64,000 bases of DNA. Source: Zancudomyces culisetae HAW-14-8 (taxonomy: Eukaryota; Fungi; Kickxellomycota). Below are positions 7,985-64,000 of the stretch, piece after piece. The number at the start of each line of letters is the position of its first letter. Position 1 is the first letter of the stretch. A program made the translations under genes and the position numbers. The notes beneath the pieces were generated by a model. It did not search any database, was not told where the DNA came from, and worked only from the letters and a program-made list of their open reading frames with translations. Location: positions 1,798,001 through 1,862,000 of the forward strand of contig JBNJNM010000015.1 of assembly GCA_052426225.1 (NCBI GenBank), in the 5' to 3' direction.

Positions 7985-8360
7985 ACTATTCTTTTCATTT
8001 CTCTCTTTCTCTCTCTCTCTCTCTCTTCCCTCCCACTTATGCTGTTTCTAACTTACCATCTTTTTTTAAAACTAATGAAAATGTAAAAAAAAAGGTTAAA
8101 CCAAGTATACGAGAATATTCAAGCTACTACCAACAACCCCCCATATAAATACAACCCCCCCCCCCCCCCCTCCTCCCTCTTTGGTTATTCCCAACCCTGA
8201 TATCTACTATATTACAATACATCAAATAAAATGTAGAGTATTGATTTCACGAATCCTTTTGCTGTAATTGCGTAAATACACTCTTTTTTTATTTAAATAT
8301 TCCTAAACTAAACAAAAACGCTTACAAAAACAAGTTAAATATCAATACTAGTGGAAAGAA

Positions 8361-39869: not shown

Positions 39870-42060
39870 ATGTTCGTGAGTTCTGGGCAAAAGATCTAAT
39901 TAATCGGATTATTTGAAAAAATAATTGTGTTCAAAGGTAATTAAAAAATATCAAATTTAGTTTTCATTTTAACAATAATATAAACAATCTAAAATATTTT
40001 TATAACTATCACGAAGACCAAACAATTCAGCTCAAAAGTTCAAGAGAAAATTTTTAAAAAGTAAAATAACCATAAAAAATTTTAATAATAATAGTAATTT
40101 CAACTATTATCTAGTAAAAATACGAGTATAGAAATTGACCAAATATGGATGAGGAGAAGCAATAAGATATTAAATAAATGCACGCGGAATATAAAAATAG
40201 GCAGATAGCGCAAATTATAATAATTATGTATGAAATTAAAGATAAATCAATATGAGCGTCTTTAGCTTTTTTAGTAGTTCAAAAAATAGTAGCAACATTA
40301 GGAAATAAGTACATTGAACAAGAAGAATTAGTTTAATACAAGTTTAATTAAAGTCAATTATTACTAATGATAGTGTGTCGGATAAAAGTTTAAATAAAAA
40401 AATTTAAAAGTTTAAACTTACTAAAATCTCATGTCAGGTCTGATGAAGAAGCTCTGTTCAACAGTCATTGAACAGTTCCGGGAAATGATCGCTACTCTTC
40501 TGATAGTGATAGATAAGATGTCTCGTCCATGAATGTAGAGCCTGAACCGCCACGTGACCAATTTAAAGATCTTGAAGAAGTAGTCAATCAAAAGTTTCTA
40601 TCTTTCAGAAACCCAACCAACGAGCGTGATCTTCTCGGTAACGTCCGACACATACTTACGCGCTTGACAGAGATGTACCATTATATTTCTATCAATTATA
40701 ATTGAATATGATAAGTTATATAAATCAAATATATTATTAACAAAATTTAGGTTTGGTGAAAATAGCTAGTTAATACTTTACATTATTGAAATCAAAGAAT
40801 GAATACTGGAAAACATTCAATTAATTTTAGTAATACTATTAGTATATTTATTCATTAAAATAACTTTTTTATTTATTTTAGAATAAAACAGGTATATATA
40901 CCTAACTTTTGGTACAAAGCTAAACAAGAGATATTATTTTTAAGTTTTAATTAAATGCTATACAGAAATTAAAGTAGTTGACAAAAAAACACTATTTTGA
41001 ACTAAATTACTGTTAAAATTAAAGTTTAAAATAATTAAAATAATTAAAATTCACGCGAAGGTTAGAAAATAGTATGATTCCTATATTGATATACAAATTC
41101 ACAACTCTTATTTTTACATTCGATTTAGAATAGGCGAAAATGAAATTTAAAAATTTAGTATTATCAAGTGATAAATATTATAATTGAAATTTGAATAATG
41201 TTTATGTATTTTCGTGTGTTCTGGGTTGAATTCCAACTTAATCCGATTTCTTGGGAATATATAAATATTCAAAGGAAATTATTCAATTATCTAAAAATGA
41301 AATGAATTTTATTTAACCATTAACAATCAAAAATATGAAGATTATTTCTGATCATAAAATGAAGGAAATAGTCAGATCAAAAATCCAAGAGAAAAATTAC
41401 AAAATGAAATAAGGACATAAAAAGAATTTATTATTATTAGTATATTTAATTAAATTAAAGAGTATTTAATCGACTATGAAAAATGAGTCAAACTATGAGG
41501 ACGACCACAAAGCATAAATTGAAGGGATAGCGAATATATTAAATATTAATAGGATAAGATTAGTAATAGTTTTAAAATTTGCAATTAACATATATAAAAG
41601 CCAAAGAGATCTCATTAGGAGTCTCTTTAGCTCTTTTAGTAGTTTAAAACATATTCACAAAAGTAAGAAATAAAGACATTGAACAAGAAGGATTCTGTTT
41701 AATATAAGTTTATTGAAAAGTAATTAATCATATAATAGTGCTACGGCTAAAAGTTTAAAATAGTAAAAGATAAAAGTTTAAAATTACTAAAATCTCATGT
41801 CAGGTCTTATGGGTCATCTGCGCGCTGCCATCATCCAGAGATTCAAGGATGAGGGGCGGTACTCCTCGGATAGTGATCGTTCCGAAGCTACTTCTATGGA
41901 AATAGAACCGGAAGCGTCACGTGATCCATTCTCTTTTCTTGAAGGAGTGGTTCAAAGAGAGATGGATTCCATGAGAAACCCGACTAAGGAGCGTGGCCAG
42001 TCCAGCCACGTCCGACAGTATCTAATAAATTATTTATTAAATTACTTCTTTAACCACAAG
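39870..42060. repeat. Diverged tandem duplication, period ~1366 bp (~39870-40705 and ~41210-42060)
   Basis: Shared blocks such as acattgaacaagaag, taagttta and ttactaaaatctcatgtcaggtct. Paralogous ORF starts at 40431 and 41797. Confidence 0.8.
40431..40705 (+). pseudogene. Disrupted paralog of the 41797 ORF
   Basis: MSGLMKKL...QFR, a frameshift near 40482, then RYSSDSDR*DVSSMNVEPEPPRDQF...RNPTNER with an in-frame TAA at 40514. Aligns with ORF 41797. Confidence 0.7.
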
Positions 42061-43324: not shown

Positions 43325-43396
43325 CGCCCGATGTGGGGGTCGAACCCACAGCCTTGAGGTTAAAAGCCTCACGCTCTACCATTGAGCTAACCGGGC
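43325..43396 (-). tRNA. tRNA-Lys (anticodon TTT), intronless
   Basis: GCCCGGTTAGCTCAATGGTAGAGCGTGAGGCTTTTAACCTCAAGGCTGTGGGTTCGACCCCCACATCGGGCG forms a full cloverleaf with A box, B box (GGTTCGACCC) and anticodon stem TGAGG/CCTCA. A T-rich terminator follows. Confidence 0.97.
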
Positions 43397-43405
43397 CGTT
43401 GATTG

Positions 43406-44001
43406 TGTTGAATTCGTTTTCATTTTTTAGTACTAGTCCAATAGGATTTTCCCAAAAAACTTCCACTAATATCAATCACGGTTCCCTAGAAGGGTGGTTA
43501 TTACTGACACAGGATTTACCATTTCTAGCCAGTTAACCACTATCTATAAAACCCCCTCGGAAAGAACACAACTGGACAATTTCCACAATTTTTGGTAAAA
43601 ATAATTTTATTTAAAAGAATTCCTCCCAAAACCTGGAAAATATAGCCAAAATGGCCCTTTCCTTACACTAAAAAAATAGTATTACGCCTCTCTATATATG
43701 TTTATTTTTACTTTTAGTGTGGTTTTGGTCGGATTTACAAATTTTTCAATTTATACTAATAATTTACTAATAAAATTGATTAAAAATAAATCCACTAATA
43801 AAGTATAAAATCGATTCGACTAAAAAATAAATCGATTTGTACTATTAAATTGGCTGTAAAATTGACAAAAATTTATGACATGGTCATAATTTTTGTACTC
43901 TAAATTGAATTGCGCAGGAAACAATTTTTTCAAAATTGATTTCTCTGCTATTTTGCTGCAATGAAAGCGGTAAATTTAAGTTGATGCTTTTGCATACAAC
44001 A
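43406..44001 (-). repeat. E1 3' LTR
   Basis: Direct repeat of 51388-51983 with no mismatch seen by eye. PPT GCTGGAGGGGGGAC (minus strand, ~44004-44017) is adjacent. Confidence 0.95.
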
Positions 44002-44030
44002 ATGTCCCCCCTCCAGCTTTCGCTCCGTGA

Positions 44031-47000
44031 TCAATTCCTGTATCTTCTGATCTTAGTTCTTAAAGAACTTGGAACTACTTCGGGGACCATTCTTTCTGAA
44101 TACTTGTAGGCCTTTAATCTATCGCCGTTCACTGTATCCATGTTTCCGTCTGGGTCTTTGATCAAATACACGCCTTTTGTGTAACACTTGATGATTTCGT
44201 AAGGACCTTCCCAGATTGGGTCAAACTTGCCTCCAGGTCCACTTATTCTTTTTAATACTAGGTCTCCTTCTTTGAACTGATAACGCTTTACCACTTTGTC
44301 GTATCTCTGCTTCATTACTGACTTTGACTTTGCGTTATTTTCCATAGCTTTTTCTCTCATCTTTGGAATACTGATCTGCACGACTCTCATTCTCTGTAAT
44401 ATCTCTTCCTCTAAGTTATCAATTTCAGCCGGCGGCATCCAAGTTGATGGTGTTTGCATTTTTACACCATATAACATCTCTGATGGACTGAACCCAGTAG
44501 ATCTGTTTTTCATTGATCTAACAACCAGTAGGGCTTTCCAAATATAACTATCCCAGTTGTCTCTGTCCATTACGCATATTTTTGCTAAGACATTCTTAAA
44601 TGTTCTATGAAATCTCTCGACTTGTCCGTTAGTCTGAGGCCTGAAAGCAGTAGTTGGTGTGTGTTTTATTCCCAACTGCTTGTATAACTCCGTAGTTATT
44701 TCTGATACAAATGAACTGCCTCTGTCTGAAATTAACTGAGTTGGTACTCCAAACTCCTGTACTACCTTACTTAATAGAAATTCTACGATGGTTTCTGACT
44801 GGAAATTTGTTACTGGTACCGCAATGGGCCACCTAGTAAAATAGTCTATCGCTGTGATGATAAATCTATTCCCAGATTTTGATATAGGGTTAATGGGTCC
44901 TACTACATCTATACCCATGATTTGGAATGGTGCAGGCGCAATTATCGGATGCATTTCCGTTCTTCTAAATTCGCCTTCTTCATATTTTTGGCACCGTTCG
45001 CATTCTTGTACCACTTCTTCTACAATTTTACGCAAGCCTCTTCCTACATATTTATTTTTCACTCTATTGAGAGTGTTTAGAATCCCTTCGTGTCCTTCTT
45101 CATGAATTTCTCTTATCATTAACTTAGCATTGTCGCTGTGTAACACTTCTCGGATTCCTGATTCCCTAGAGTACTTGCATACTTTACCGTTTACTAGTTT
45201 ATACGGCTTTGCTCTTTTTCTTAGCTTGGCTCTGAACTCCTCATCAGCTCGTAGCGGGTAGCTGAAATCTCTGAGGTAGTTCTCAATGGCTTTATGATGT
45301 AAGACATCGATTACCATTAGTTCCTCATACTTTGTTATCTTGTTTTCTTTTTCTCCGGTCTCTACGTTCCTGGATAAATAATCAGTAGGATTATTTGGAC
45401 CGCGGCAATGCTCCAATTCAAAGTCGTACTCTCTTAGGAACATGGCCCATCTAGCGACTCTTCCATTTAACTCTTGAGAATCAAAAACTTTTAACAATGC
45501 CATATGGTCGGTTCGAATCTTGAACCTCTTTCCCCACAGGTAGTGCTTAAACTTTTTGACTCCCCAAACTACTGCCAATCCTTCCAAGTGTGTGATTGAG
45601 TAGTTCTGTTCATGCCTGTTGTTTGTTCTACTGGCATATGCTATGGGTCTTTCTTCCCCATTTTGTACTTGAGATAGAATTGCCCCCAATCCAATTCCAG
45701 ATGCATCCGTTGTGAGTATAAATGCCTGTTCCCAATTTGGGTGTGCCAGAGTCGGTGCTTCTGTTAGTTTTTTAATTAGTGTTTTAACCGACTCTTCACA
45801 ACTTGCGCTCCAAGTCCAGGGTACGTCCTTCTTTAATAGCTCTGTAAGCGGCTTTACTATCAATGCGTATCCCTCTATAAATTTTCTGTAGTAACCTGTG
45901 AGCCCCAAGAACGATTGAATCTCTTTGACGTTCCTTGGTGCGGTTACTTTTTCCATGGCCTCTATTTTATCCTTGTTGGTAGAAATGCCATGTTTAGAGA
46001 CCGTATATCCCAGATACTTGATTTCGGTCTTTGCAAACTCACATTTTTCTTTGTGGAGTTGCACCTTGTGTTGCTTCAATAACTCAAACACTTCTCTAAG
46101 ATGTTGAGTGTGGTCTTCTGTGTTCTTTGAATAGATGATTATGTCATCTACAAACACAATAGCAAACTTCCAGAGTACTTTTGCCAGTACTCGTTCCATC
46201 ATCTTTTGGAATGTTGCCGGACTATTGCATAATCCAAACGGCATTACATTATAGCAATACATACCATCACCTGGTAATGCAAACGCGGTCTTGTGTTTAT
46301 CCGCGCTGTTCATACGTACCTGCCAGAATCCACTCATGGCATCGACTACACTGAATACTCCTGCTTCTCCGAATGCTGCCAGTATGTCGTCAATTATGGG
46401 TAGAGGATAAAGATCTTTTCTGGTAATCATGTTGAGTTTGCGGTAGTCAGAACAGATCCGAAGTTTTCCGTTTTTCTTTTTGACTACAACTACCGGTGCG
46501 CACCAGTCTGATTGACATGGCTCTATGATCCCTCTTTGTTCCATAATTTTTAGTTCTTCCCTCACCTGTTCCCTTAGGTGGTGAGCTATTCTGTATGGTC
46601 GCACTCTTACTGGGTTTGAATCTCCAGTATCAATACTGTGTTCCAACACATTTGTTTGCTGGAGTTCTAGCAAGTCATCCACGAATATCTCTGCATACTC
46701 TTTGAGCACTTCTGCAATATTTTCTGGTAGTTTTTCTTTCTGTTTGCGGTTATCGACTTCCTTGATCATCGAGTAGTATTCATACTCGTTTGTCTGTTTT
46801 GGACCATCTGTTTCAGTTATCATCAGTGAAACTACAACGTCCCCTTCTACCGTTGGTAAGAGCAGCTCCATGTTGCTCAAATCGATGTTGGCCTGGTGTT
46901 TCAGTAACCAATCTGCTCCCAACACCATCCTGTTTAATCCTCCTTCCATAACTACTAAATCTCCTGGGAAGATGAACCCTGCTATAACAAATGGAACATC

Positions 47001-48473
47001 TCTAATTATTCCCAGTGTCTCATGCTTGGTGCCATCAGCGGTTATGAGCATTGAGTGATCTTTTTGCTCAATTTTTAAACCTAACATGTCCATAAATTGC
47101 TCTGAGATTACTGAACATGCTGCACCTGTATCAATAACTGTGAGCTGGTGCTTTCCAAATACTTCAATGTAAGCTTTGCAGTTTGTGGTGGTTGTCCTAT
47201 CTTCTACAATGGTGTTCAGCTCCTTGGCTTCTATCTTCTTAAAGAGATCGACCAACTCTTTCCTGATTTCGGGTGAAGACTGTAACAGTTGACCAAGTGA
47301 AATATCTGGTTTTAATTTATCCAACTCTGAACCTATCGAAAACTTTTGAATGTTCTCCGATAGTCTAATATCCATTTTCTTCCTAACTCTTAGGGTAGCT
47401 GGTTTGATTACTGGCCCCGTCTTGTTAGGTTCCTTTTGTGCCACACGGATTTTTGCATGAGCTGGCTGAAAATCCATGCCATTGTTTTCGTCTCTCTTCC
47501 GTTTGTCCACTGCATAGAGTTCCGTATCTTTGTTTCCATCTGTTTTTCTTTCTATCTCTATGCAGTTAATTTCTTGTTTTTGGTCCTTCTGCCTCTTGTA
47601 GCACGCTGCGGCCTCATGCCCTGGCCTTTTGCAGTATGTACATTCCACTTTCTTGAACGGTCTTCTTGATTGTGGAGCAGACTTTTCAGAGTAATTTGGT
47701 CTCTTTTCTAATCTAGCTAGGAGATTAAGTGAAAGCTCGTCAAACTTTTTAATCAACGCCTCGTACATATCTGGACCCTCATTAGATTTATGTACCTTCA
47801 TCACCTTCCTACTAGTGCTTTTTGGTTTTTCTGATGTTTCCCTGACAGTAGGTAATATTTTCTCGACATCCTCTTCTGCCTGGATTATTGCTATGGCAGA
47901 TTTGACATCCTTAACTTTGGCTTTTAAAATTTGCCTTTGATACTTGGGGTTAAGAGCGTCTACAAAAAACTTAAGTCTGATCCGTTCGTCTTTAATATCG
48001 ACTGTTGAGACCAGTTTGCTGAACTCCGTCTCAAAATCTTCAAAGTCGAGGTAGTCACTTTGTTTAAGGCTTTGCAGTTGATTCCACGCTCGTGCCTCTC
48101 TGTCTTTACCTTCAAACTTTTCCAGGAATTCCTCACGAACCTTTTTCCATTTTTCTAGTTTAGACTTATTGATCTTGTACCATCGAAGGTCTTTCCCCGT
48201 TAAAAACAATTCTAAGAAATCAATCTTGTCTTTTTCCATCCAGCTGTTGATCCTAGCCATTAGCTCATACCTATCGAGCCATTCTTCCACGTTTGTAGTA
48301 GTGTTACTATCGAACATTGCTACATCTGGAATTCCTCTGTTGAACGTAAAGTTCATATTTAGAGGTATTCGGTCAGTTGTTGGTTCAGGAGCGCTCGTCT
48401 CCTGTACTTCGACCTCCTCTGATTCATCATCAGTAGTATCCTCTCTCAACTTTTCTGCTCTTTTACTAAACAT
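44031..48473 (-). CDS. E1 Gag-Pol polyprotein (Gag-CCHC, protease, RT, RNase H, integrase)
   Basis: CTYCKRPGHEAAAC, IDTGA, MPFGL...FVDD, TDASG, HHCC zinc finger, GIDVVGP...SDRG...GQVER, GPY. Domain order PR-RT-RH-IN is Ty3/Gypsy. Confidence 0.97.
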   Translation of the reverse strand: MFSKRAEKLREDTTDDESEEVEVQETSAPEPTTDRIPLNMNFTFNRGIPDVAMFDSNTTTNVEEWLDRYELMARINSWMEKDKIDFLELFLTGKDLRWYKINKSKLEKWKKVREEFLEKFEGKDREARAWNQLQSLKQSDYLDFEDFETEFSKLVSTVDIKDERIRLKFFVDALNPKYQRQILKAKVKDVKSAIAIIQAEEDVEKILPTVRETSEKPKSTSRKVMKVHKSNEGPDMYEALIKKFDELSLNLLARLEKRPNYSEKSAPQSRRPFKKVECTYCKRPGHEAAACYKRQKDQKQEINCIEIERKTDGNKDTELYAVDKRKRDENNGMDFQPAHAKIRVAQKEPNKTGPVIKPATLRVRKKMDIRLSENIQKFSIGSELDKLKPDISLGQLLQSSPEIRKELVDLFKKIEAKELNTIVEDRTTTTNCKAYIEVFGKHQLTVIDTGAACSVISEQFMDMLGLKIEQKDHSMLITADGTKHETLGIIRDVPFVIAGFIFPGDLVVMEGGLNRMVLGADWLLKHQANIDLSNMELLLPTVEGDVVVSLMITETDGPKQTNEYEYYSMIKEVDNRKQKEKLPENIAEVLKEYAEIFVDDLLELQQTNVLEHSIDTGDSNPVRVRPYRIAHHLREQVREELKIMEQRGIIEPCQSDWCAPVVVVKKKNGKLRICSDYRKLNMITRKDLYPLPIIDDILAAFGEAGVFSVVDAMSGFWQVRMNSADKHKTAFALPGDGMYCYNVMPFGLCNSPATFQKMMERVLAKVLWKFAIVFVDDIIIYSKNTEDHTQHLREVFELLKQHKVQLHKEKCEFAKTEIKYLGYTVSKHGISTNKDKIEAMEKVTAPRNVKEIQSFLGLTGYYRKFIEGYALIVKPLTELLKKDVPWTWSASCEESVKTLIKKLTEAPTLAHPNWEQAFILTTDASGIGLGAILSQVQNGEERPIAYASRTNNRHEQNYSITHLEGLAVVWGVKKFKHYLWGKRFKIRTDHMALLKVFDSQELNGRVARWAMFLREYDFELEHCRGPNNPTDYLSRNVETGEKENKITKYEELMVIDVLHHKAIENYLRDFSYPLRADEEFRAKLRKRAKPYKLVNGKVCKYSRESGIREVLHSDNAKLMIREIHEEGHEGILNTLNRVKNKYVGRGLRKIVEEVVQECERCQKYEEGEFRRTEMHPIIAPAPFQIMGIDVVGPINPISKSGNRFIITAIDYFTRWPIAVPVTNFQSETIVEFLLSKVVQEFGVPTQLISDRGSSFVSEITTELYKQLGIKHTPTTAFRPQTNGQVERFHRTFKNVLAKICVMDRDNWDSYIWKALLVVRSMKNRSTGFSPSEMLYGVKMQTPSTWMPPAEIDNLEEEILQRMRVVQISIPKMREKAMENNAKSKSVMKQRYDKVVKRYQFKEGDLVLKRISGPGGKFDPIWEGPYEIIKCYTKGVYLIKDPDGNMDTVNGDRLKAYKYSERMVPEVVPSSLRTKIRRYRN

Positions 48474-51367
48474 TTTGATTTTGTTGTTAAACTTTAAATA
48501 ATTGATAATTTTTTGTTATTTTGTAATTTTATAAATTTTATATTTTTATGTTTTTATGTTTAATTTTTTAACAATATTTTTATTATATATTATTTTATTA
48601 TAATAATTATTTTTTTTTTTTTTTTTATTTTTTTTTTTTTATTTATTTTTTTTTTTGTATTATTTATTGTTGTAGTTTAGTATTGTTTAGAAAACTTGTT
48701 AATCTGTTGAAAGTTGGATAAACTTTTAGATTTATAGGATTAAATTTCGATTTTGTTTGATTTGGAGTCTGATTTGATTTTTAGTATTTCGACTCAATTA
48801 ATTTAAATTTTTAATCTCTTTGCTGGTTTTGATTAGTTTTACTTTGTTTTAATTTGGACTGTGTCCCTGCTTTTTATCTGCTATGTTATTCTGACTTGTA
48901 TTCATAAATTTAATTCCCAATTTAAGTTACCAAAAGTTCAGTCAGTTTTGAAGTGATGAACAGTTTGGGTTTGATGTATTACCCAACTCCCGAACGGTTT
49001 GGAAGGGAGGACCTCCCCGCCCAAAAGATTGGACATCGGATTTGTTTTACCCCCATTTCATATTTCCACACTAGATCTTTCGAACGTTGGAGGGATTTAA
49101 TCTAGTGTAATAAAAGATTATTGAATTTAATCTTTTCAGTATGTTTCGGTTCCGAATAATATTAACTAGAAAGTAGAAACTAGTTAAATGATATTTACCG
49201 TTCTGAAGACGCGCCGCTCTAACAGAACTCATAAGACGACAATATTGTGCATCTTACCTTGGTACCACTATTGGGTTTGGTTGAAATAAATAATAAATTC
49301 TACCTCACCCTAGCCCCTTGGGAATGTTGAACTTACATCACCCAATTGACTGTAGAATACCTAGGAATTGACCTCCATGGTATCCTTTACTCTTGGAGTG
49401 CTTTGCTACTCCGTAATTGGTTATACTAAGACCCCCATCTAACTTATCTATCCTTATTTTGATAGAATGGTTAGGCCGGACAAAGAGAGTAAACCAGTTC
49501 TGCTCCTGTCCCATTAATGACGTAGGTTGATTCCTGCAGGGTTATCACCTCGTAAATATTTATCTCACCTTGTTAGCTACTCAAGGTGTAGAAAGGTCCC
49601 CAGAACTGAAAGTACTCTTACCACGTAGGTTGGAGGGTTTGGAATACTTCCGTTTGTTCTACCGAACCCAAGGTGTCCCTTTTTTGGGTACTACCATTTA
49701 CTGACTTACTGGGTAAACTTTTTAGTTTCCCGATAATATTAGGCTGATCTTGTTTAAATATTACTACCAAACCTAATACCAATTTAGTTCCATATTTTAC
49801 GGAACTTTACCACAAAATTCCTCCACCTGTTTCATTCACTCGGTTTTGGAATCGAGTATTTTATTACTCTTATAGTTTCTGGGTTAACTGGTAGGGTAGA
49901 AATTATTTCCCCAGTTATTTCCTTACTTAAAACCAATTAAAGAAAAAATTATTCCTTTAAAACCACCCAGGAAGTCTGATTCAGTTTCCCTAAATCTTGA
50001 AAAAGGATTTGGATAACTAACTTCAACTTCTCAAAACTTGGGAGTGTATCTGGAGATAGATACAGGATCTCCCTATTTAAAGTGTGAAGTTTATTTCTAC
50101 CTTTAAACTTCTTACACTTTTACTACTGGAGTTCAACTCCAGGTAGTTTCCCAGCAAAACTGTGGCCTAGAATAAGCTTGCATATAGCTCGCTTAAACTT
50201 ACCAAGTGACTTTAGTAGGTTGGTTAACTCTTACCTTCCCACTGTCACTGGTAGCTTTTCCCCACTTTAAGGATGTTATTCTTAAAGTTAGCTACAAAGT
50301 TGCCGGTCTAGTAACCTATGGTCGGGCTCCTAGACTCGGTGTAGTAAGAAAAAATTTGGATTTTTACATCCCATTATCCTCATTACTACTAGTGGCTTCT
50401 ACTAAGACTAAATGGCATTGCATTTAGTCCCTAGACGCCGGTGATATGGTGTAAAACCCGCCGCAGAAATCCCCAGTACTTCTCAAAGAAGTCCGTCTCA
50501 TTCCTGTTTTGAGCCCACCTTTGGTGACTTGTGTACATGTATTTTTAGGTTACTTACACATAATTTTGCTTTTCAGCAGTAAACCCCCAGTATCCATCTT
50601 TCTTCTCCCAAGTATTGGAAGGTCTCCGTACAGCTAGCATTAACGAAAATTAACTTTCTTTAGCTATCACCGTATCTAGGAGATTTCAATATTTGGGGAA
50701 TCCAGACGAACCCGTCTCGTTTCCGCTTCCAACCAAAAATATGCTTATCGGCCTAAAAACCCATAAACATTTACCACCAACACCTGGGAAGTATCCAAAA
50801 GTATGCGACATAACGCACATTTTGCTTCAACTCCCGCAGGTAACACAGCATTTTAAGCTGTTCTGGGAAAAGCTCCCAAAGCCATTTGTAGAATTTAACT
50901 GTTTGGAAATGTTCTATTAAACATAATTAATATCCCATGTCCCAATTTGTTTAATTCCCCAAAAGCCTAAAAAGAAAAGGTCGGGTAATGTGGGAAATTC
51001 AATTACATTTAGGCTGAAATGTAAATGAAACCCGAAAAAGTATTGAGAAAAATCTTAAAGGGAAAAATGTATTTAAAGCCAATGTTCCTAGCCCCACTGA
51101 AAGTGTTTTGCATTTACCAGCGCGAGTCCCTAAAAGGGCTTTCGTGGTTACCTTACCTGGTCCGGTGGTTCAGAGAATTTATTCCCTATTTAAAAGGAAC
51201 AAACCTCCTACTAGCCCACATTGGCCCCAGATGGTGTAAGGTCCAACTCGTCTCATAAATGGCTTCTAGGCGACATAGCCGAAGCTTTTACGGCAAATTT
51301 TTGGTCATTAGAAAGAAAATCTTTCTGACCAAAAATTTAACTTTTCTCCCAAATTCTCCTCATACCA

Positions 51368-51385
51368 TTCCCGGCAGAGCCCCCA
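51368..51385 (-). promoter_or_regulatory. E1 primer-binding site, probably for tRNA-Pro
   Basis: Minus-strand TGGGGGCTCTGCCGGGAA lies 2 nt inside the 5' LTR. It complements a tRNA 3' end ...TTCCCGGCAGAGCCC-CCA, similar to eukaryotic tRNA-Pro. Confidence 0.85.
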
Positions 51386-51387
51386 TT

Positions 51388-51983
51388 TGTTGAATTCGTT
51401 TTCATTTTTTAGTACTAGTCCAATAGGATTTTCCCAAAAAACTTCCACTAATATCAATCACGGTTCCCTAGAAGGGTGGTTATTACTGACACAGGATTTA
51501 CCATTTCTAGCCAGTTAACCACTATCTATAAAACCCCCTCGGAAAGAACACAACTGGACAATTTCCACAATTTTTGGTAAAAATAATTTTATTTAAAAGA
51601 ATTCCTCCCAAAACCTGGAAAATATAGCCAAAATGGCCCTTTCCTTACACTAAAAAAATAGTATTACGCCTCTCTATATATGTTTATTTTTACTTTTAGT
51701 GTGGTTTTGGTCGGATTTACAAATTTTTCAATTTATACTAATAATTTACTAATAAAATTGATTAAAAATAAATCCACTAATAAAGTATAAAATCGATTCG
51801 ACTAAAAAATAAATCGATTTGTACTATTAAATTGGCTGTAAAATTGACAAAAATTTATGACATGGTCATAATTTTTGTACTCTAAATTGAATTGCGCAGG
51901 AAACAATTTTTTCAAAATTGATTTCTCTGCTATTTTGCTGCAATGAAAGCGGTAAATTTAAGTTGATGCTTTTGCATACAACA
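51388..51983 (-). repeat. E1 5' LTR
   Basis: Direct repeat of 43406-44001, adjacent to the PBS. Confidence 0.95.
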
Positions 51984-52723
51984 ATTGTTGTAATTTTAGT
52001 TTGCAGAAAATTTCTCAGGAAATTTCCGCAACTAAACCTACAAAAAGTTCTGCTAATAGAGGGGGATTGTTACTGGAATAAGTTTTACTTTATTTAACCA
52101 GTCAACCCTACCTTTTTAGCTTATATTTAATTTAGTTTTATGTATTTATTACTTCAATAAATGCGATAAAACTGGGTAAAATTACGCCCAACTCCTAAAA
52201 TTTGGTGTGCAAAACAATTAATTTTGGTCCAAAAATTAGACTCTGATACCTTTCTGATACCCTTTGAAAATTGTGTTACGCTTCACTACCTATGTTTTTT
52301 TTTGGTTTTAGGTAGGTTTTTGCTCAAATCACAAATTTCAATTTTATAGAGTAAAATCAAGTATTTTAGAGCTAATTTGTATTTTATTTAATGAATAACT
52401 TTTAAAAATAAAAAGATAAAACCACCAAACTTGTGGTGAAGTTACTAGTAATATACTAGTACCTGACTAGCTATTTTATTAGAACTTTATATAATAGAAA
52501 CTTAAAATAAAATAATCAAAACTTAATATTGACTCACTTTTTGGGTGATAATTTCACCCTAGTAATCCCAGATTACTAGCTCGAACACCCGAGATAACGG
52601 TGGTTATTCGGTGTTTGAGAAGCTGTATGCTGTTTATCCAATAGTTTAGCTTGGATAGAACTAAGCATACAACACCTCCCCCCCACAGCTTACACTCAGG
52701 GTTTCAACCTTTGTGTGCAAGCT

Positions 52724-55700
52724 TTAATTCTTGAAGCGTCTCAAAGTGCTCCGAATATTCCCTGGCGTGATCTCGGGAATCATATGTTCTGCCTGGCGAT
52801 ATGGTTTAAGGCGGTCTCCATTAACCAAGTCACGGTGTCCTGCTGGATCTTGGATAACGTATGTGCCTAACCTAAGTACTCTGGTGACGGTATATGGTCC
52901 TTCCCAGTAGGGTTCCAATTTTCCTGAAGGCTGCTCAACTTTTCTGAGCACCTTGTCACCTTCCTTGAAACGGTAGACAGTTACTTGTTTGTCATACCTT
53001 TGCTTCATGACCTGGTTTGCCTCAGCCATTTTCTCAACTGCTAGGCGCCTTATCTCGGGGATACCAACTTGGATGGCGTTTACCCTTTGAATAATCTCTT
53101 CCTCGAGATCTTCCACTTCTGCAGGAGGTCTCCAAGTTGCTGGGGTTTGCAACTTTACTCCATACAGTAACTCTGCGGGGCTTTTATCTGTAGATCTGTT
53201 CTTCATAGTCCTGATGACTAACAAGACCTTCCAGATATAAGTATCCCACTCTTCCTTGTTTCTCTCAGAAACTTTGGCTAACACATTACGGAAAGTTCTA
53301 TGGAAGCGTTCCACTTGACCATTAGCTTGGGGACGAAATACGGTAGTTGGGGTGTGGTGAATCCCCACCTCTTCGTAAAACTTAGAGGACAATTCTGATG
53401 TGAATGATGCTCCTCTGTCAGACATAAGTTGTGCGGGTATACCGAACTCTTGCACCACTTTGGTGAACAAGAAGTTAATCACAACTTCCGAAGTAGCATG
53501 TGGCACCGCCACAGCAATTGGCCACTTCGTCAAGTAGTCTATCGCAGTTATGACATACTTGTTGCCTGATTTTGCTATAGGATTTATAGGTCCTACAAAG
53601 TCAATCCCCATTATTTCAAACGGTCGCATGGCTAGGAAAGGATGGAGCGGCTCTCTAAAGAATTTACCTTTATCTTGTTTTTGGCAACGCTCACATTCTC
53701 CTACAACTTCCTCAACTACCTCTCGCAACCCTTTACCGAAGTACTTGTTTCGGGCGCGATTCAGGGTATAGAGTATTCCTTCATGACCTTCTTCGTGAAT
53801 CTCCCGGATTTTCTCCTTTTGATTCTCATGGTGAAGTACTTCCCTTATCCCAAACTGCTTTGTTACTTTGCATAACTTATTATCCAGCAGCTTGAACAAC
53901 TTAGCCTTTTCCCGAAGGCTTTTCCTGAAGTCGTCATTAGCTCTGTTTGGGTAAGTTCTATCCCTTAGGTAGTTGGAAATAGCTGCGTGATGTAACACAT
54001 CCATCGCCGCTATTTCTACTTCCTCGGCCTCTGCTCCTGGGGCTACTTCTTCCGTGATTCCTGGATTTCTTGACAGGAAATCAGTAGGGTTTACAGCACC
54101 CCTAACATGTTGGAATTCGTAGTCAAACTCCCGCAGGAACATTGCCCATCGTGCTACTCTGCCATTTAAGTCCTGGGTGTCAAAGACCTTTAGTAATGCC
54201 AAATGGTCTGTCTTCACCACAAACTTTTTCCCCCAAAGGTAGTGTTTAAATTTCTTTATTCCCCACACTACCGCAAGGCCTTCCAAATGAGTAATAGCAT
54301 AGTTGGCTTCATGAATGTTTAGGGTGCGACTGGCGTAAGCTATTGGGCGTTCTTCGCCGTTTATTTCTTGTGTTAAGATAGCTCCCAGTCCGACCCCAGA
54401 GGCATCCGTGGTCAGGATAAATTCCCTGTCCCAATTGGGATGTGCCAGTGTAGGAGCTTGAGTGAGCAGTCTCTTTAGCTCCCGCACCGCCTCTTTACAT
54501 TCTTCAGACCACTCCCAAGAGACATCTTTCTTTAGGAGGTTTGTCAACGGTCTGGCCACTAACGCATAGTTAGGTATAAACTTCCTATAGTACCCAGTGA
54601 ATCCTAAGAAGGATTGTATTTCTTTAACATTTCTTGGGTCTATTAGAGTGTTTATACTCACTATTTTATCCTCATTTGTACTTATACCATTCTTACCAAT
54701 GGTATGCCCCAAGTAACGAATCTCGGTCTTGCCGAATTCGCACTTATCTTTGTGCAATTGCACTTTACCCTTCCTGAGACATTCAAAAACTTCTTCTAAA
54801 TGTCCCTTGTGTTCCTCCCAGGTCTTGGAGTACACAATTATGTCGTCGATAAACACAATTGCACAACGCCATAAAACATTTGCCAACACTTTCTCCATCA
54901 GTTTCTGGAATGTAGCGGGACTGTTGCAAAGTCCAAAAGGCATAACGTTGTAACAGTACATTCCATCTCCTGGTAGAGCGAATGCTGTTTTGTGTTTATC
55001 TGCGGGATTCATTTTGACCTGCCAAAACCCGCTCATAGCGTCCATTACGCTAAAAACCCCTGCATTCCCAAATGCCGCAAAGATATCATCAATTATTGGC
55101 AATGGGTACAGATCCTTGCGGGTAACTAAGTTAAGTTTACGGTAATCTGAGCAAATTCTCAACTTCCCGTTCTTCTTAGTTACCACCACTACTGGGGCGC
55201 ACCAATCGGACTGGCAGGGCTCAATTATGCCTTTCTCTGCCATTACCTCCAGTTCCCCTCGCACCTGCTCCCGTAGATGGTGCGGAATCCTGTAAGGGCG
55301 AACCTTCACCGGATTGGCGTCTCCAACCTCAATGCGGTGGTCCAAAACATCGGTCTGTTCTAGATCCATAAGATCAGTCACAAACAGATCCTTATTCTTT
55401 TCCAGCACATTGAGGAGCCCCTGGGGTACTTCTGGTGCCACTTCAGATGTTGAAGTTGACACCTCCTTTGCTATCCCGTAGAGTTCGTACCCCGAATAAT
55501 CTACGAGGTTGCTTTTCTTGCTCGTAAAGAGTGTCAAAGCAATCTCCTTGTCGCCCTTGGGTAATATTAATTCTTTACCGCCCAAGTCGACCATAGCACC
55601 ATGTTTAGTCAACCAGTCCATGCCTAAGACTAGCTGATTAATACCCCGCTCCATGACCAACAGATCTCCAGTAAAGATGTACCCAGCGATTCTGAAAGGT

Positions 55701-57262
55701 ACACCCGAAACTATTCCAAGTGTGGAATGTTTCGCCCCATCTGCTGTCACTATAGTGGGCGTATCCATAGTGTCTATTTCCAAACCCAGCATTTTTAGGA
55801 AGTCGTTGGTGACTACTGAGCAGGCTGCTCCAGTATCTAGGATAGCAACGTGGTATTCACCAAAGACGTCGATGTACGCTTTACAGTTTGTATAACGACT
55901 ACCTTCATCTTCAATGGCTCCCAACTCTTGCTCCTCCAACTTTTGGATGTATGTTAACATCCTCTTCCTAACCATTGGGGAAACCTTGAGGAGGTGGGCA
56001 TAGTTTAACTTTGGTTGAATCCTGTTAAACTCATCCTCAATGGAAAACTCCTTTATTGGGAGTTCTTCCTTGTCCCCAGGTGTCTGGCGAGTTTTCCCAG
56101 TCGCCGCACCTCTCTCGCGTACTATAGCTGCTTTATCAGCTAAGTAGCGTTTTGTTTTAGAGTTGGTTTCCGTCTGGAAAGAGAACCTGTCTTTCGCAGG
56201 GTTTCTCGGAACCACTCGTATTGCCTGAGGTGGATTTTGGTCTTTTTCGACCTCCATACCAACCTCCCTAATCTCTCCGGTAACCTGTCCCGGAGGATTT
56301 TCTCCTGTCCTAACTCTACCCCTTACAGGGCCGTTGTCTGTTGGGGAGGGGCTTCTGGGCCTTTTCTCCACTCCAAACAACGCTTCCGCCTCTGAGTCGG
56401 ACATCTCAGAGCATAGCTCAATACAGCCTAAGTCTTTCGACCCTCCAGCTGCTTCAGGACATTGTGTCCCATGGTGCCCAGGCTTTTTACACTTGAAGCA
56501 CTCCAGGATTCTTGGCTTGAAGTCTCTCTGGGGTTTCCTATTGTTTCCCCCATGAGATTTGGCCTCAAGCTTTTCCATCCTGTCGAGAATGTTGAGTTGC
56601 AAACCTTGCATATACTTCAACGTTCTCTGTAATTCCCCAGCAAAGTTTTCCTTCAGCGAAGTATCCGCTTTTGGAGGACTTTGCTCTTTCTTTTCTACCT
56701 TTGCGGGTGCTCTGGTTTTCTTTGGTGCCGAAAGATTCAGAGCCTTCTCGAGTTTTTCTTCCTCGAGGAGTTTCTCCTTAGCTTCCTTTACCTTAGTAAT
56801 CCCAGCCTTAGAAAGAAGGACTTGATTCCTTTGGGTGAGTGCTCTCCGAAAGAGATTCATCCAAGTCTTCGAATCCTCCTTAATACCCGCAGCATTAGCC
56901 AAACTATCAAACTCGGCTTCGAAAAGCTCAAAGTTTTTAAAGTTTGCTTGCCGCAAATCTATCAGGGTTTCCAATGCCGTTAACTCAGTTTCTTGAGTAC
57001 CGAACTGCTCCAGGAATTTCTTGGAAGCGGCTTCCCAGGTTGTCAAAGTTGACAATTGCCTTTTAAACCACTTTTTGTCCTCCCCGGATAGGTACAGCTC
57101 AAGATACTTGAGTTTTTCTGCATCATTCCACCCATACATAGATGAAATTAAACCGTAAGTATGCAACCAGTCCTCAACATCGGGACAGTTTGCGCTATCA
57201 AACGGAGTAATTTCTGGACCCCCGCGGTTAGATATCACTTTTTTACCAGTGTTCCCAACCAT
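52724..57262 (-). CDS. E2 Gag-Pol polyprotein
   Basis: CFKCKKPGHHGTQC, LDTGA, FIDD, TDASG, HHCC, GIDFVGP...SDRG...GQVER, GPY. Confidence 0.97.
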   Translation of the reverse strand: MVGNTGKKVISNRGGPEITPFDSANCPDVEDWLHTYGLISSMYGWNDAEKLKYLELYLSGEDKKWFKRQLSTLTTWEAASKKFLEQFGTQETELTALETLIDLRQANFKNFELFEAEFDSLANAAGIKEDSKTWMNLFRRALTQRNQVLLSKAGITKVKEAKEKLLEEEKLEKALNLSAPKKTRAPAKVEKKEQSPPKADTSLKENFAGELQRTLKYMQGLQLNILDRMEKLEAKSHGGNNRKPQRDFKPRILECFKCKKPGHHGTQCPEAAGGSKDLGCIELCSEMSDSEAEALFGVEKRPRSPSPTDNGPVRGRVRTGENPPGQVTGEIREVGMEVEKDQNPPQAIRVVPRNPAKDRFSFQTETNSKTKRYLADKAAIVRERGAATGKTRQTPGDKEELPIKEFSIEDEFNRIQPKLNYAHLLKVSPMVRKRMLTYIQKLEEQELGAIEDEGSRYTNCKAYIDVFGEYHVAILDTGAACSVVTNDFLKMLGLEIDTMDTPTIVTADGAKHSTLGIVSGVPFRIAGYIFTGDLLVMERGINQLVLGMDWLTKHGAMVDLGGKELILPKGDKEIALTLFTSKKSNLVDYSGYELYGIAKEVSTSTSEVAPEVPQGLLNVLEKNKDLFVTDLMDLEQTDVLDHRIEVGDANPVKVRPYRIPHHLREQVRGELEVMAEKGIIEPCQSDWCAPVVVVTKKNGKLRICSDYRKLNLVTRKDLYPLPIIDDIFAAFGNAGVFSVMDAMSGFWQVKMNPADKHKTAFALPGDGMYCYNVMPFGLCNSPATFQKLMEKVLANVLWRCAIVFIDDIIVYSKTWEEHKGHLEEVFECLRKGKVQLHKDKCEFGKTEIRYLGHTIGKNGISTNEDKIVSINTLIDPRNVKEIQSFLGFTGYYRKFIPNYALVARPLTNLLKKDVSWEWSEECKEAVRELKRLLTQAPTLAHPNWDREFILTTDASGVGLGAILTQEINGEERPIAYASRTLNIHEANYAITHLEGLAVVWGIKKFKHYLWGKKFVVKTDHLALLKVFDTQDLNGRVARWAMFLREFDYEFQHVRGAVNPTDFLSRNPGITEEVAPGAEAEEVEIAAMDVLHHAAISNYLRDRTYPNRANDDFRKSLREKAKLFKLLDNKLCKVTKQFGIREVLHHENQKEKIREIHEEGHEGILYTLNRARNKYFGKGLREVVEEVVGECERCQKQDKGKFFREPLHPFLAMRPFEIMGIDFVGPINPIAKSGNKYVITAIDYLTKWPIAVAVPHATSEVVINFLFTKVVQEFGIPAQLMSDRGASFTSELSSKFYEEVGIHHTPTTVFRPQANGQVERFHRTFRNVLAKVSERNKEEWDTYIWKVLLVIRTMKNRSTDKSPAELLYGVKLQTPATWRPPAEVEDLEEEIIQRVNAIQVGIPEIRRLAVEKMAEANQVMKQRYDKQVTVYRFKEGDKVLRKVEQPSGKLEPYWEGPYTVTRVLRLGTYVIQDPAGHRDLVNGDRLKPYRQAEHMIPEITPGNIRSTLRRFKN

Positions 57263-57662
57263 TTTTTAGTAGTATAAACTAACTACTTTAATAATAGTTC
57301 TTCCCGTAACTTGTTCGGAACTTTTAACTTTTTATATTTTTAATTGGGAGTTTTCTCGGAAAAATATCTCCGCAAAAGGAATAGTACCAATTTACTATTA
57401 TTCCTAGCCTTCTGCTAATATTTCTGAGGTATAACTACCCAAAATTAATGTTTCCTGCAGGAAAAACTCCTGGTGAAACTTTTAATTAATATTAATTTTT
57501 TTGGTAACTTTAGTCGCTGACTAGTTACCTTTCGCACCCGAGAAACTGTGGTATTTCACCCAGAATTCTCCAGATATATTTTAATACTTATAAAATAATC
57601 CTTTAGCAGCTTAATTGCTGACTAGAGTGGTTATTGCGGGACTTCCCAAGTGTTTTGGTAGT

Positions 57663-57680
57663 TTCCCGGCAGAGCCCCCA
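57663..57680 (-). promoter_or_regulatory. E2 primer-binding site (identical to E1, tRNA-Pro-like)
   Basis: Plus-strand TTCCCGGCAGAGCCCCCA, 1 nt from the LTR at 57682. Confidence 0.85.
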
Positions 57681-58375
57681 CTGTTGTAATTTTAGTTTGC
57701 AGAAAATTTCTCAGGAAATTTCCGCAACTAAACCTACAAAAAGTTCTGCTAATACAGGGGGATTGTTACTGGAATAAGTTTTACTTTATTTAACCAGTCA
57801 ACCCTACCTTTTTAGCTTATATTTAATTTAGTTTTATGTATTTATTACTTCAATAAATGCGATAAAACTGGGTAAAATTACGCCCAACTCCTAAAATTTG
57901 GTGTGCAAAACAATTAATTTTGGTCCAAAAATTAGACTCTGATACCTTTCTGATACCCTTTGAAAATTGTGTTACGCTTCACTACCTATGTTTTTTTTTG
58001 GTTTTAGGTAGGTTTTTGCTCAAATCACAAATTTCAATTTTATAGAGTAAAATCAAGTATTTTAGAGCTAATTTGTATTTTATTTAATGAATAACTTTTA
58101 AAAATAAAAAGATAAAACCACCAAACTTGTGGTGAGGTTACTAGTAATATACTAGTACCTGACTAGCTATTTTATTAGAACTTTATATAATAGAAACTTA
58201 AAATAAAATAATCAAAACTTAATATTGACTCACTTTTTGGGTGATAATTTCACCCTAGTAATCCCAGATTACTAGCTCGAACACCCGAGATAACGGTGGT
58301 TATTCGGTGTTTGAGAAGCTGTATGCTGTTTATCCAATAGTTTAGCTTGGATAGAACTAAGCATACAACATGTTT

Positions 58376-58911
58376 TGTTGTATAATTACATGTTTAACGT
58401 CCTACTGAGTAATATAATTACCCAGTATTATACAGGACGGGACTTTTATTAATATATATTAGGACTATAATTATTTTGGGAGAAAAAGACAATTTATTAA
58501 TTAATTCAAAACTAGACTATTTAATGCATAAAATAATACTATTTAAATTAACCAATAAAATACAAGGAAATACAGGTATATATTTCTACTATATAACAGT
58601 TTGTGTAATATTTAAAATTTATATTATATTACCCGTTATGGGTGCACAGTGTCAATACACTAGTTACTTCCTTCACGGATAGTGTTTAAGCTCACCGTTT
58701 ATGTTAATAACTGAATTTTGTGTAGACACTTGTTATATTTTACTATTGTAGTTTATTTTTTATGATATACTTAATAAAAATTGATAATAATGTTTTTCTT
58801 AAAACTAGAAATCCAAACTCCTATATAAAAGTAATGATAACACGAACTTGTTATCAAGGAAGTAGGAAAAAACCCTCCTAGGGAGAAAAGTCCAATCTTC
58901 CCAATAAAATG

Positions 58912-58967
<56 letters not shown>

Positions 58968-59429
58968 ATGACTCATTAATAAATTACCTAACCAATTTCT
59001 GACAAGGGGTAATCCATCCATTTCTATATGACATTTGACGGCATTTAATTTTTCCTTGTCGCTTTTACCCGACTTTACCGCCTTAACAAGTATTTTGAAA
59101 GTTTATACTATAATCTAATAACTACCTGAAGACGGTAGGACCCAGATTCAATGGCTTAATGTGTTTATTTTTGATTATAAACTAAAGAAAAAAGATACTG
59201 AATTCAGTAGGTCAGATACTTAGCCTTATATCTGATCTCTCATATTTTAAATAAACTAACTATATTATAACTATATAAGAAACATTGATAAAATTAATAT
59301 AAAATTAATATAAAAATTAATAGAGATTTACACGGGAAAAACCTCATAGGTGAAAAACACCGTGTAAGTCTTTGCACATCACACGAAAGCACCCGTGTGA
59401 TGTACATCCTGTCGCTCATTGATGCGACA
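58376..59429 (-). mobile_element. Probable solo LTR (E3), 1054 bp
   Basis: TGTTG...CGACA ends flanked by a perfect 5-bp direct repeat TGTTT (58371-58375, 59430-59434). The terminus ATGCGACA is shared with the E4 LTR. Confidence 0.75.
58912..58966. repeat. (AAT)n microsatellite inside the solo LTR
   Basis: About 18 perfect AAT units read directly. Confidence 0.95.
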
Positions 59430-59868
59430 TGTTTTGTTAGCGAAACACAGGTTTACTTCGGTATTTTGAATATTATATATTTATTTTGATAGAAATACTA
59501 TACTAAGTACTATGTTTAAAATTGTTTTCACTATAGTAACTATGCTAAAACAAATAGACCAAATTTAAATAAACTATATTTATTTGATGATGTAATACTA
59601 AGTGAATATCTAGCCATATTTATACATTTTAAAAATGACTATTACAATATTCTGAAATAATTTTATACTAATTAAATAAAAATCCTATAAAATATATTTA
59701 AATTGAACTAGAGTGTTGCTGTAGAAAAAATCCAGAAGGATAAAAAAACTAGGCAGCACATAATATAATAAATAACCTATAATAAATAATATCTTATATT
59801 AAATGATAAACCTAAATATTAATATAAAAGTATATGAATAACTGGTAAGTTAAAATTATATAATGACT

Positions 59869-60252
59869 TTAGGTAGCTCTAGCCACTATATAACAGTTTG
59901 TTATGTCGTAATAATCATAATTCGGGAGATCATGATTATTATGTTCATCACGTGTCATACCAGTTCGGGTATGACCACTTGATGAGGATGCACCACTACC
60001 CCGTAGTGTGATGTGCATATAGGGGTGCTCGGGTGAGCTATTTCCCCTGTACAATGTCGGTGAGATGCTGCTCACGGACATTGGTTCTGGGCTCCTACGG
60101 ATTTGGAGTTGACGGACACTTTCTGTCAACTCCCCAAGAGTCCGAGGGCTTAGAACCCCGGTCTCTTGGTCCATGCTACTAGCCGTACTCAGACTGGAGC
60201 TAGTTTCTGAATCCCTCTTGGATTCGCTTTTACTATAAAAGAAATAGTTCAT
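59869..60252 (-). CDS. Ser-rich 127-aa hypothetical protein inside the inferred E4 LTR
   Basis: GC-richer open frame with AAAAATG context in very AT-rich flanks, on the same strand as the element. No recognised domain. Confidence 0.45.
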   Translation of the reverse strand: MNYFFYSKSESKRDSETSSSLSTASSMDQETGVLSPRTLGELTESVRQLQIRRSPEPMSVSSISPTLYRGNSSPEHPYMHITLRGSGASSSSGHTRTGMTRDEHNNHDLPNYDYYDITNCYIVARAT

Positions 60253-60734
60253 TTTTGGTTATTGGTTATTATCAATAATATTCTGAAGTTTGTTTTATTG
60301 TGTTTAAATAAATATACTATTTAATCCGTAGAGTAGAACATGGATGAGGTTTTTCCATTTCCCTCTTCTTGTTCCTTAAATATAAATTTCTATTAAACTG
60401 CTACTATCTTCAAAACGTTTAAATTACTATTACTTATGTACTATAAGAACTATATGACTTTATACTGACTTCCTCTACATATTTTACTTATGTAGTGAAT
60501 GTTGAATTAGGTGTTGGGAACACCTAATAATTATTATCTAATTTAGGATTTAGTATGAAGACATTTTTCATACTAAATTCTATCATTATTGAGTCGACTC
60601 AGCATGTAGAATTAATTTCATACTGTGTCGCTCATTTTCCAAATTGAATTTCATGCAGATACAAAAATTTAATTTTCATTCTGCGATGAGTGTACTTCAA
60701 TTTGTACTACAATTGTACTTAAGTGTACAATTGC

Positions 60735-63700: not shown

Positions 63701-64000
63701 GATTGAGTATATTGGTATGCAAACACTAAATGTATCGAATGTTATTTGTACTGATGGATAGTACCGTGGTTTGGAATGGTTTCCTTCCACTCCAACAATA
63801 GTCACAGTTGTTTCTTGCCCTTTGCCTAAATTCAGTCTTCTAGCCATTTCGCTGCTCATCAGATTGGTGGCTGCTCCACTGTCATATTGAAATCTTGTAC
63901 TTATGTTATTTACTTTGACACTACCCATTATGGCGGTTATCTTATTACTCATCTCTCTTTGCGAAACTACTGGATGCTTAATGCCTTGTTCCTTTATCTC
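60735..64000 (-). pseudogene. E4 pol (PR-RT-RH-IN) split by a 1-nt frameshift in integrase near 61635. The frame stays open to the window edge
   Basis: YDSGA, LPFGL, YIDD, TDAS, WGLDVAGP. The sequence GGA AAT AA- TAC ATA ATT GTA GCA GTG GAT TAT restores GNxYIIVAVDYFTKW if one base is added. Confidence 0.85.

Follow-up and report, generated by a model that had tools for sequence, protein, structure and literature searches.

How an LTR retroelement chooses between translating and packaging one RNA, and how much RNA structure packaging needs, has been worked out closely in only a few cases. Ty1 retrotransposition depends on two hairpins whose 7-nt apical motifs are complementary; these are modelled as intermolecular kissing loops that drive dimerisation (PMC5454406). 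In BARE, experiments revealed separate translated and packaged RNA pools that differ in cap and poly(A) (PMC3735527). The gypsy elements that target tRNA genes (Ty3 and the DGLT-A type) have most of their copies within about 30 bp upstream of such a gene, and some DGLT-A consensus lengths reach 7.3-8.4 kb (PMC5006619, PMC5911963).

Here we analyze a retrotransposon, E1, in a 64,000-nucleotide stretch of DNA that we call the window. E1 shares the LTR-PBS-gag-pol-PPT-LTR layout of DGLT-A, Ty3, Tj1 and Ylt1/Tyl6, members of the Metaviridae with a single ORF and insertion at tRNA genes. Its single ORF, its CCHC knuckle and the absence of any chromodomain match in the gag-pol ORF resemble DGLT-A. 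Insertion is also similar, as DGLT-A elements sit 10-34 bp upstream of tRNA genes and E1 sits 9 bp upstream of one (PMC5006619, PMC5911963). The 5′ end of the RNA differs from that of Ty3. In Ty3, the 5′ PBS segment is at nt 121-128 of a 5.2-kb RNA (PMC4974528), whereas E1 has a 2.9-kb non-coding leader.

Two groups of plant elements also carry long non-coding regions. LARDs such as Sukkula hold a structured non-coding domain, conserved across copies, inside an LTR element (PMC7215508), but they are non-autonomous and lack gag and pol. The open 1480-codon gag-pol ORF of E1 led us to reject a LARD assignment. The Ogre/Tat/Athila (OTA) elements are autonomous Ty3/gypsy elements with large non-coding regions, as E1 is, but they often hold extra ORFs and tandem-repeat arrays, neither of which occurs in the E1 leader, and they live in hosts of another kingdom (PMC6317226). 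A term search of a survey of fungal LTR elements gave no occurrence of 'UTR', 'leader' or 'tRNA' (PMC3248453). Our literature search, which covered mainly open-access papers, turned up no description of a leader of this kind among fungal gypsy elements. The size of the leader, its unscannable design and its pair of complementary loops are unusual for an element of this kind.

Results

E1 is an intact Ty3/gypsy LTR retrotransposon, with identical LTRs, an open ORF, a PBS and a polypurine tract. It reads on the minus strand and has these parts:

51388-51983, minus strand: 5′ LTR, TG...CA, 596 bp, 100% identical to the 3′ LTR over 598 nt (the exact match is 2 nt longer than the LTR)
51368-51385, minus strand: PBS, 18 nt, beginning with TGG 2 nt past the LTR and matching E2 positions 57663-57680 at 18/18 bases
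44031-48473, minus strand: gag-pol, a single open ORF of 1480 codons (ATG at 48473) encoding Gag, protease, RT, RNase H and integrase
44004-44014, minus strand: polypurine tract, recognized by its sequence adjoining the 3′ LTR
43406-44001, minus strand: 3′ LTR, identical to the 5′ LTR
43325-43396, minus strand: host tRNA-Lys(TTT) gene, with the E1 end 9 bp upstream of its first base

The Pfam domains of the ORF follow the Ty3/gypsy order: Gag at residues 102-189, protease at 448-554, RT at 678-839, RNase H at 902-1030 and integrase at 1129-1293. The PBS resembles the 3′ end of a tRNA-Pro, a candidate primer. The 4-mer CAAT, a candidate target-site duplication, is found at both flanks of E1, with the limit that AT is also the dinucleotide after the polypurine tract and CA is also the last two bases of the neighboring element, E2.

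E2 (51986-58370) abuts E1, and a third element, E3, abuts E2, so that at this one locus three elements are stacked upstream of a single tRNA gene. The LTRs of E2 differ at 2 of 689 bases, and its protein is 54% identical to that of E1. The host is an insect-gut fungus, either Zancudomyces culisetae or a species very near to it, judged by protein similarity: the host protein encoded at 7121-7984 is 99% identical to a Z. culisetae protein and 48% identical to its counterpart in Smittium simulii. For the E1 polyprotein, the closest relatives with a name come from Z. culisetae and Smittium culicis. Description of a Z. culisetae assembly gives 3.03 Mb of retroelements, without further description in the passages seen (PMC12611240).

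A metagenome scan returned 32 related loci, whose proteins are 23-35% identical; none of these loci resembles the E1 leader at the DNA level. A viral scan retained none of four candidates, and a search of viral contigs for the PBS 18-mer was negative. A scan of prokaryote genomes gave two loci, the better one with 29% identity and only 480 nt upstream. A blastn search against phages gave no match.

The sequence-only reading that prompted this work had described a 2.9-kb, ORF-free leader made mostly of hairpins. It placed the gag ATG 2894 bp from the PBS in E1 and 400 bp from it in E2, and both distances are exact. The leader is indeed free of ORFs: its longest stop-free frame is 88 codons against a shuffle mean of 91, and its stop counts per frame equal those of shuffles. 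The period-3 signal is 1.10 in the leader vs 2.1-2.3 in two pol ORFs. Decayed coding sequence, which that reading had named as an outcome that would count against it, was not detected. Six frames read through stops gave no Pfam family at E≤1, and tblastn of 77 proteins against the leader recovered only the gag start, plus two matches at E 0.04. Repeats in the leader are short and at chance level. The hairpins are unrelated in sequence, as had been claimed, and we rejected a tandem-repeat origin. The suggestion that the leader is captured cargo fared less well, as tblastn, Pfam, Rfam and blastn against phages gave no donor or source.

All eight of the individual stem-loops described earlier are present, with their positions and arms correct. 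The part of the leader that folds is somewhat shorter than had been proposed, about 2.45 kb, with the last ~430 nt before gag weakly folded. The elements of the predicted fold discussed below are:

48905-51367, minus strand: folded non-coding domain, ~2.45 kb, with ~51 predicted stem-loops of median 11 bp, defined by folding against shuffles and by the global fold
51034-51371, minus strand: predicted PBS-proximal multibranch domain with a 14-bp helix at 51294-51339 (pair probabilities 0.7-0.95; hairpin z -6.0)
50522-50779, minus strand: predicted unbranched, imperfect rod of 258 nt and 89 bp, the only long duplex-like element of the leader
50079-50120, minus strand: hairpin A, with a 10-nt loop (50094-50103) predicted to be fully open (P 0.90) and complementary to loop B
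49566-49588, minus strand: stable hairpin in the predicted fold with a 6-nt palindrome in its loop, a possible but weak self-dimer site
49162-49187, minus strand: hairpin B, with a 10-nt loop (49170-49179) predicted to be fully open (P 0.93) and complementary to loop A
48474-48904, minus strand: segment next to gag that is rich in A (59-65%), folds weakly and lacks AUGs, defined by composition and pair probabilities

The leader folds better than dinucleotide shuffles on both strands, and more strongly so on the sense strand. For 48900-51387, the minimum free energy (MFE) of the sense (minus) strand is -766 vs -614.5 +/- 7.3 in 10 block-wise dinucleotide shuffles (z -20.8), and that of the antisense strand is -662 vs -545 (z -12.9, 10 shuffles). 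Pairs of p>0.8 take up 36% of leader bases vs 10% in shuffles (3 shuffles). Folding is uneven: when 48787-51186 is cut into eight 300-nt segments, sense z lies between -3.0 and -5.7 in five of them and between +0.1 and -1.6 in the other three. Confident G-U pairs are twice as numerous on the sense strand as on the antisense strand (32 vs 16), which favors RNA structure over DNA cruciforms. The picture of a large structured non-coding RNA in a young, intact element thus holds up, given the identical LTRs, the open ORF, the folding beyond shuffles, the sense bias and the lack of coding. The interpretation as a whole, with its proposed roles, is partly supported.

The long-range stems said to enclose the hairpins do not stand out. 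The arms exist (those of CAGTTCTG and CAGAACTG start at 49495 and 49601), but the helices are no stronger than chance duplexes. The MFE helix joining 50471 and 49529 has -28.4 kcal/mol and the best real long-range duplex -28.6, while the best in eight shuffles ranged from -28.5 to -34.1. A pinwheel architecture and a ribosome shunt are both unsupported, as long-range helices are at shuffle level. A dimer site made from palindromic loops was also rejected, since palindromes occur in 4 of 49 loops, not above expectation.

Could the leader be an independent large non-coding RNA that is released and acts in trans, as a small-RNA precursor cluster, an RNAi decoy, a ribozyme or a protein scaffold? 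Its size, the 51 stem-loops, the rod (89 bp within 258 nt) and a loop pair that resembles a tertiary contact would suit such a molecule. A small-RNA precursor cluster would need several long, near-perfect hairpins that yield discrete 21-25-nt RNAs. However, no uninterrupted helix in the leader fold is longer than 14 bp, and all but one of the 51 stem-loops have 31 bp or fewer, so that such a cluster, one of the roles put forward earlier, is poorly supported. Many T-runs on the sense strand argue against a single Pol III transcript. Nor does the leader belong to a known family (IRES, ribozyme, group I or II intron, miRNA or snoRNA). Only the tRNA passes threshold among Rfam covariance models in the window, and a search of 48400-52000 at E up to 10 gave eight sub-threshold matches, at chance level, the best with E 1.1. 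We consider a trans-acting RNA very unlikely. A retrozyme is an LTR element with a hammerhead ribozyme. We rejected this identity for E1, which has no Rfam match and no hammerhead-core pattern on either strand; a pattern for group II domain V also had no match in the leader. A scan for bacterial promoters and terminators gave chance-level results, which have no bearing here.

The leader is not alone in folding strongly. With four shuffles each, the excess over shuffles is +22% for the leader, +24.5% and +17% for the E2 coding region, and +30% for the 2.4-kb 3′ non-coding region/long 3′ LTR of E3. It is +5% and +11% for the E1 ORF, +1% for E3 pol and 0% for two host ORFs. Segments in LTRs have z of -3.5 to -10. 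Each of the three elements therefore has a multi-kb over-folded tract, each in a different place, a pattern that covers three elements at four shuffles each. Taken by itself, how strongly the leader folds is nothing unusual among the retroelement RNAs of this locus, and the leader is less of a stand-alone oddity because its neighbors are equally over-folded in other parts of their RNA.

This bears on the possibility that the leader is bulk-structure filler: old acquired or decayed DNA, nearly free in sequence and selected only to fold well. Folding would then stabilize or compact the RNA or protect it from decay, and no particular motif would matter. The E2 ORF and the E3 3′ region, as over-folded as the leader, are in line with it, as are hairpins unrelated in sequence and long-range stems at chance level. 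We regard filler as unlikely, though as the strongest of the rival readings. A kissing pair that takes up entire loops is not expected from bulk folding, and no donor was found.

Natural variation also touches on this question. Of five sequencing runs, four were compared with E1 and two with the host flank; they gave no contig over 49374-50549 and no second sequence for the kissing loops. The second sequence for the leader is one contig of a single run (X1), which covers 50786-51158 only and, at depth 4.1, is shallow enough to hold errors. It differs from the leader at 8 positions in 373 nt, and seven coding pieces of the same run differ at 8 positions in 1921 nt. A leader that changes faster than coding sequence would suit filler. 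Pairing at the eight differing sites is lower than at random ones (mean 0.36 vs 0.64, P 0.026), and the variant's fold is at least as good as that of the window copy. Seven changes in 50845-51032 shift the ensemble less than random changes do, with P 0.03 when the window copy is the starting point and 0.08 when the variant is; the antisense strand behaved much alike (0.037 and 0.15). Three of the eight fall in predicted pairs, and none makes a convincing compensatory pair. A candidate at 50923/50938 was rejected, as it has a chance of 0.18 and a pair probability <0.001 and lies outside the predicted fold. These differences give a modest hint of selection on structure. Run X1 also has a very high-depth bin at 48786-49079. 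Long host-matching pieces are scarce in this run, and contig depth is not copy number.

The E1 leader holds 41 upstream AUGs, nearly all in the folded domain. In the 5′ half their number is at expectation (28 vs 28.3), and the 3′ half has fewer than expected (13 vs 21.9). None occurs in the 430 nt next to gag (3.4 expected), and the E2 leader of about 400-420 nt holds none either. Confident pairing in the A-rich segment is 7% on the sense strand vs 6% in shuffles, and its A content of 65% just upstream of the ORF compares with 33-52% in the 150 nt upstream of seven host ORFs. By established rules, ribosomes that scan from the cap do not get through to gag when stable hairpins with 41 upstream AUGs come first. 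Ordinary scanning is thus out, and translation of E1 must start in the A-rich segment. An internal transcription start, a splice or internal ribosome entry may each lead there. TATA-like words occur in the segment at 48736, 48589, 48542 and 48533, and a CATAG candidate splice acceptor at 48881-48885, 23 nt past the last upstream AUG, has an A tract downstream of it as well.

Internal entry would make the leader a very large IRES that recruits ribosomes and delivers them to the A-rich segment, with one RNA as both genome and message. A run of 41 upstream AUGs followed by an AUG-free, A-rich landing zone is what such an arrangement would look like, and Drosophila gypsy, VL30 and LINE-1 are all reported to have an active IRES in the 5′ UTR (PMC10974842). 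However, the leader has no Rfam match, its folding fades towards the ATG (z +0.1 at 48787-49086), and no supported long-range pairing exists for a shunt over 2.4 kb. We give an IRES rather little weight.

Splicing would make the leader a giant structured intron, in which folding brings a donor in R/U5 near the acceptor past the last upstream AUG, yielding a spliced, PBS-less gag-pol message and an unspliced genome. The CATAG candidate is like the acceptors of the host EB1-like gene at 8300-10300, where two of four introns end in CATAG (introns inferred from reading frames), and a donor candidate at 51501 equals a host donor in the same gene. A Ty3/gypsy packaging role would be compatible with such an intron. 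Against it, the four host introns are only about 100 nt long, the host signals are degenerate, and the A-rich segment holds 17 AG dinucleotides. Splicing has gone undetected in Ty1 and Ty3 (PMC4974528), and splicing alone would not account for the kissing pair. A giant intron therefore strikes us as improbable.

The loops of hairpins A and B pair over all 10 nt, with 9 Watson-Crick pairs and one G-U, on the sense strand only and at a distance of 924 nt. They are the two most open 10-mers of the leader, among 12 with P>0.5. The probability of such a pair by chance is 0.002 and 0.009 under letter nulls and 0.006-0.047 under loop permutations. The pair was found post hoc, with an overall P of 0.002-0.05. 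A comparable loop pair occurred in 1 of 66 refolded shuffles and in none of six other real regions. In the E2 leader there is no such loop pair, the best having 6 pairs. The core hexamer of the A/B pair is the leader's most frequent 6-mer (9 observed vs 1.7 expected; family-wise P about 0.1), and so other partners for the loops exist; one is a second, 9-nt complement to loop A at 49896-49904, predicted to be mostly paired.

Loops A and B are thus predicted to be two exposed, complementary hairpin loops of the kind described in Ty1. The TIPIRT domain of Ty1, with SL1a-SL3a, likewise has a folded 5′ end in which two different hairpins carry complementary loops (PMC5454406). Ty1 differs in being copia-type, with a domain of ~326 nt that overlaps GAG and motifs of 7 nt, whereas the E1 domain is non-coding, 2.45 kb long, and has a predicted 10-nt pair 924 nt apart.

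Discussion

The reading we tentatively prefer, at a little under an even chance, is that the leader is a cis-acting domain through which full-length genome RNAs are paired and packaged, and that ribosomes bypass it. Loops A and B would pair; the simplest arrangement, that of the Ty1 model, is a crosswise contact of two genome RNAs. The hairpins around the loops would offer Gag a compact, folded scaffold. Gag-Pol would be made from the A-rich segment, either on a shorter RNA (by internal start or splice) or by internal entry. A bypassed leader would then split the packaged pool of genomes from the translated pool. What selection keeps would largely be bulk folding, located in the leader in E1, the coding region in E2 and the long 3′ LTR in E3. 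Among the four roles proposed in the sequence-only reading, a packaging scaffold fits best with the A/B loop pair and the 41 upstream AUGs and an IRES has a small chance; a small-RNA cluster is poorly supported, and no source for captured cargo emerged.

Several points weigh against the packaging reading, among them the post-hoc choice of the loop pair, its recurrent hexamer, the shallow variant contig and the chance-level long-range helices. The known packaging sequence of Ty1 is within the first 580 nt (PMC4974528), far less than 2.45 kb. The folded domain is also not required by the lineage, because E2 has near-identical LTRs and yet a 400-nt leader with no pair like A/B.

Other elements have solved the same conflict between translating and packaging, BARE1 with its separate RNA pools and gypsy and VL30 with an IRES in the 5′ UTR; the evidence is experimental in those systems and inferential for E1 (PMC3735527, PMC10974842). 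BARE is a copia-type element, whereas E1 is Ty3/gypsy.

A stronger version of the cis-acting reading is that the E1 leader is an undescribed 2.5-kb RNA machine with a defined tertiary fold and a 10-bp loop-loop lock across 900 nt, on a full-length RNA that is untranslatable and serves for packaging only. We think this unlikely. If it were true, E1 would represent fungal gypsy elements in which genome and message form distinct RNA pools, and the locus would be the first case of genome folding being moved among the coding region (E2), the leader (E1) and the LTR (E3) of neighboring elements.

A stack of three elements at one tRNA gene points to tRNA targeting in an early-branching fungal lineage, one that we did not find listed in two reviews. 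E1 and E2 form a natural pair: their proteins are 54% identical, and they share primer site and target. The 400-nt leader of E2 can be scanned and its coding region is folded, whereas the 2.9-kb leader of E1 cannot be scanned and its coding region folds weakly. This contrast makes the choice between translation and packaging, and the amount of RNA structure that packaging needs, directly testable.

Folding and coding features of the gypsy elements

The entire gag-pol coding region of E2 (52724-57262), the gypsy element neighbouring the intact Ty3/gypsy element E1, was strongly over-folded, with a folding energy 17 to 25% in excess of that of shuffled sequence. By the same comparison with shuffles, over-folding of this strength was absent from the ORFs of E1, of the third gypsy element (E3), and of the host. 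Two features of E3, which abuts E2, were delimited:

58371-60748, putative 3′ LTR of E3, about 2.4 kb, with a purine run then TG at 60748 and CA at 58371
60735-64000, E3 pol, with a frame break near 61634-61700

The 58371-60748 segment is probably the 3′ LTR of E3; because the 5′ LTR lies beyond the window, we infer its extent. This putative LTR was also over-folded (+30%), with local z scores of about -7 to -10. Past the break in pol, the E3 integrase carries on in a separate frame of 299 codons.

E1 Gag begins with a 39-residue acidic extension (48356-48473). A second Met follows it and, in the alignment, matches the point at which E2 and P0003, a protein compared with the E1 polyprotein, begin. 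A similar N-terminal extension is present in P0008, a Z. culisetae relative. The scan of prokaryote genomes returned a bacterial MAG contig of 6.4 kb that bears a near-complete Ty3/gypsy polyprotein region (L033:481-6344; 29% identity), probably reflecting eukaryotic contamination.

Host DNA and the element stack

Elsewhere in the window, the host DNA contains:

12643-18840, single-exon protein kinase of 2065 aa with a very long low-complexity tail
27939-30158, secreted-looking protein of 739 aa that has repeats rich in Cys at its N terminus, plus a long Ser/Thr/Val repeat
40238-40628 and 41603-41995, degenerate direct repeat of 390 bp, 71% identical, in intergenic DNA

The 739-aa protein had no Pfam match and is adhesin- or mucin-like. 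The direct repeat perhaps represents old solo LTRs.

E1 is flanked by a 4-bp repeat that overlaps the terminal CA of E2, and the flanks of E2, AACA and ATCA, differ by one base (junctions 51984-51987 and 58369-58372). The three elements form a head-to-tail gypsy stack (43325-64000), spaced by 0-2 bp and lying immediately upstream of a single tRNA-Lys(TTT) gene. This stacking upstream of one gene suggests repeated targeting of tRNA genes in a Harpellales fungus.
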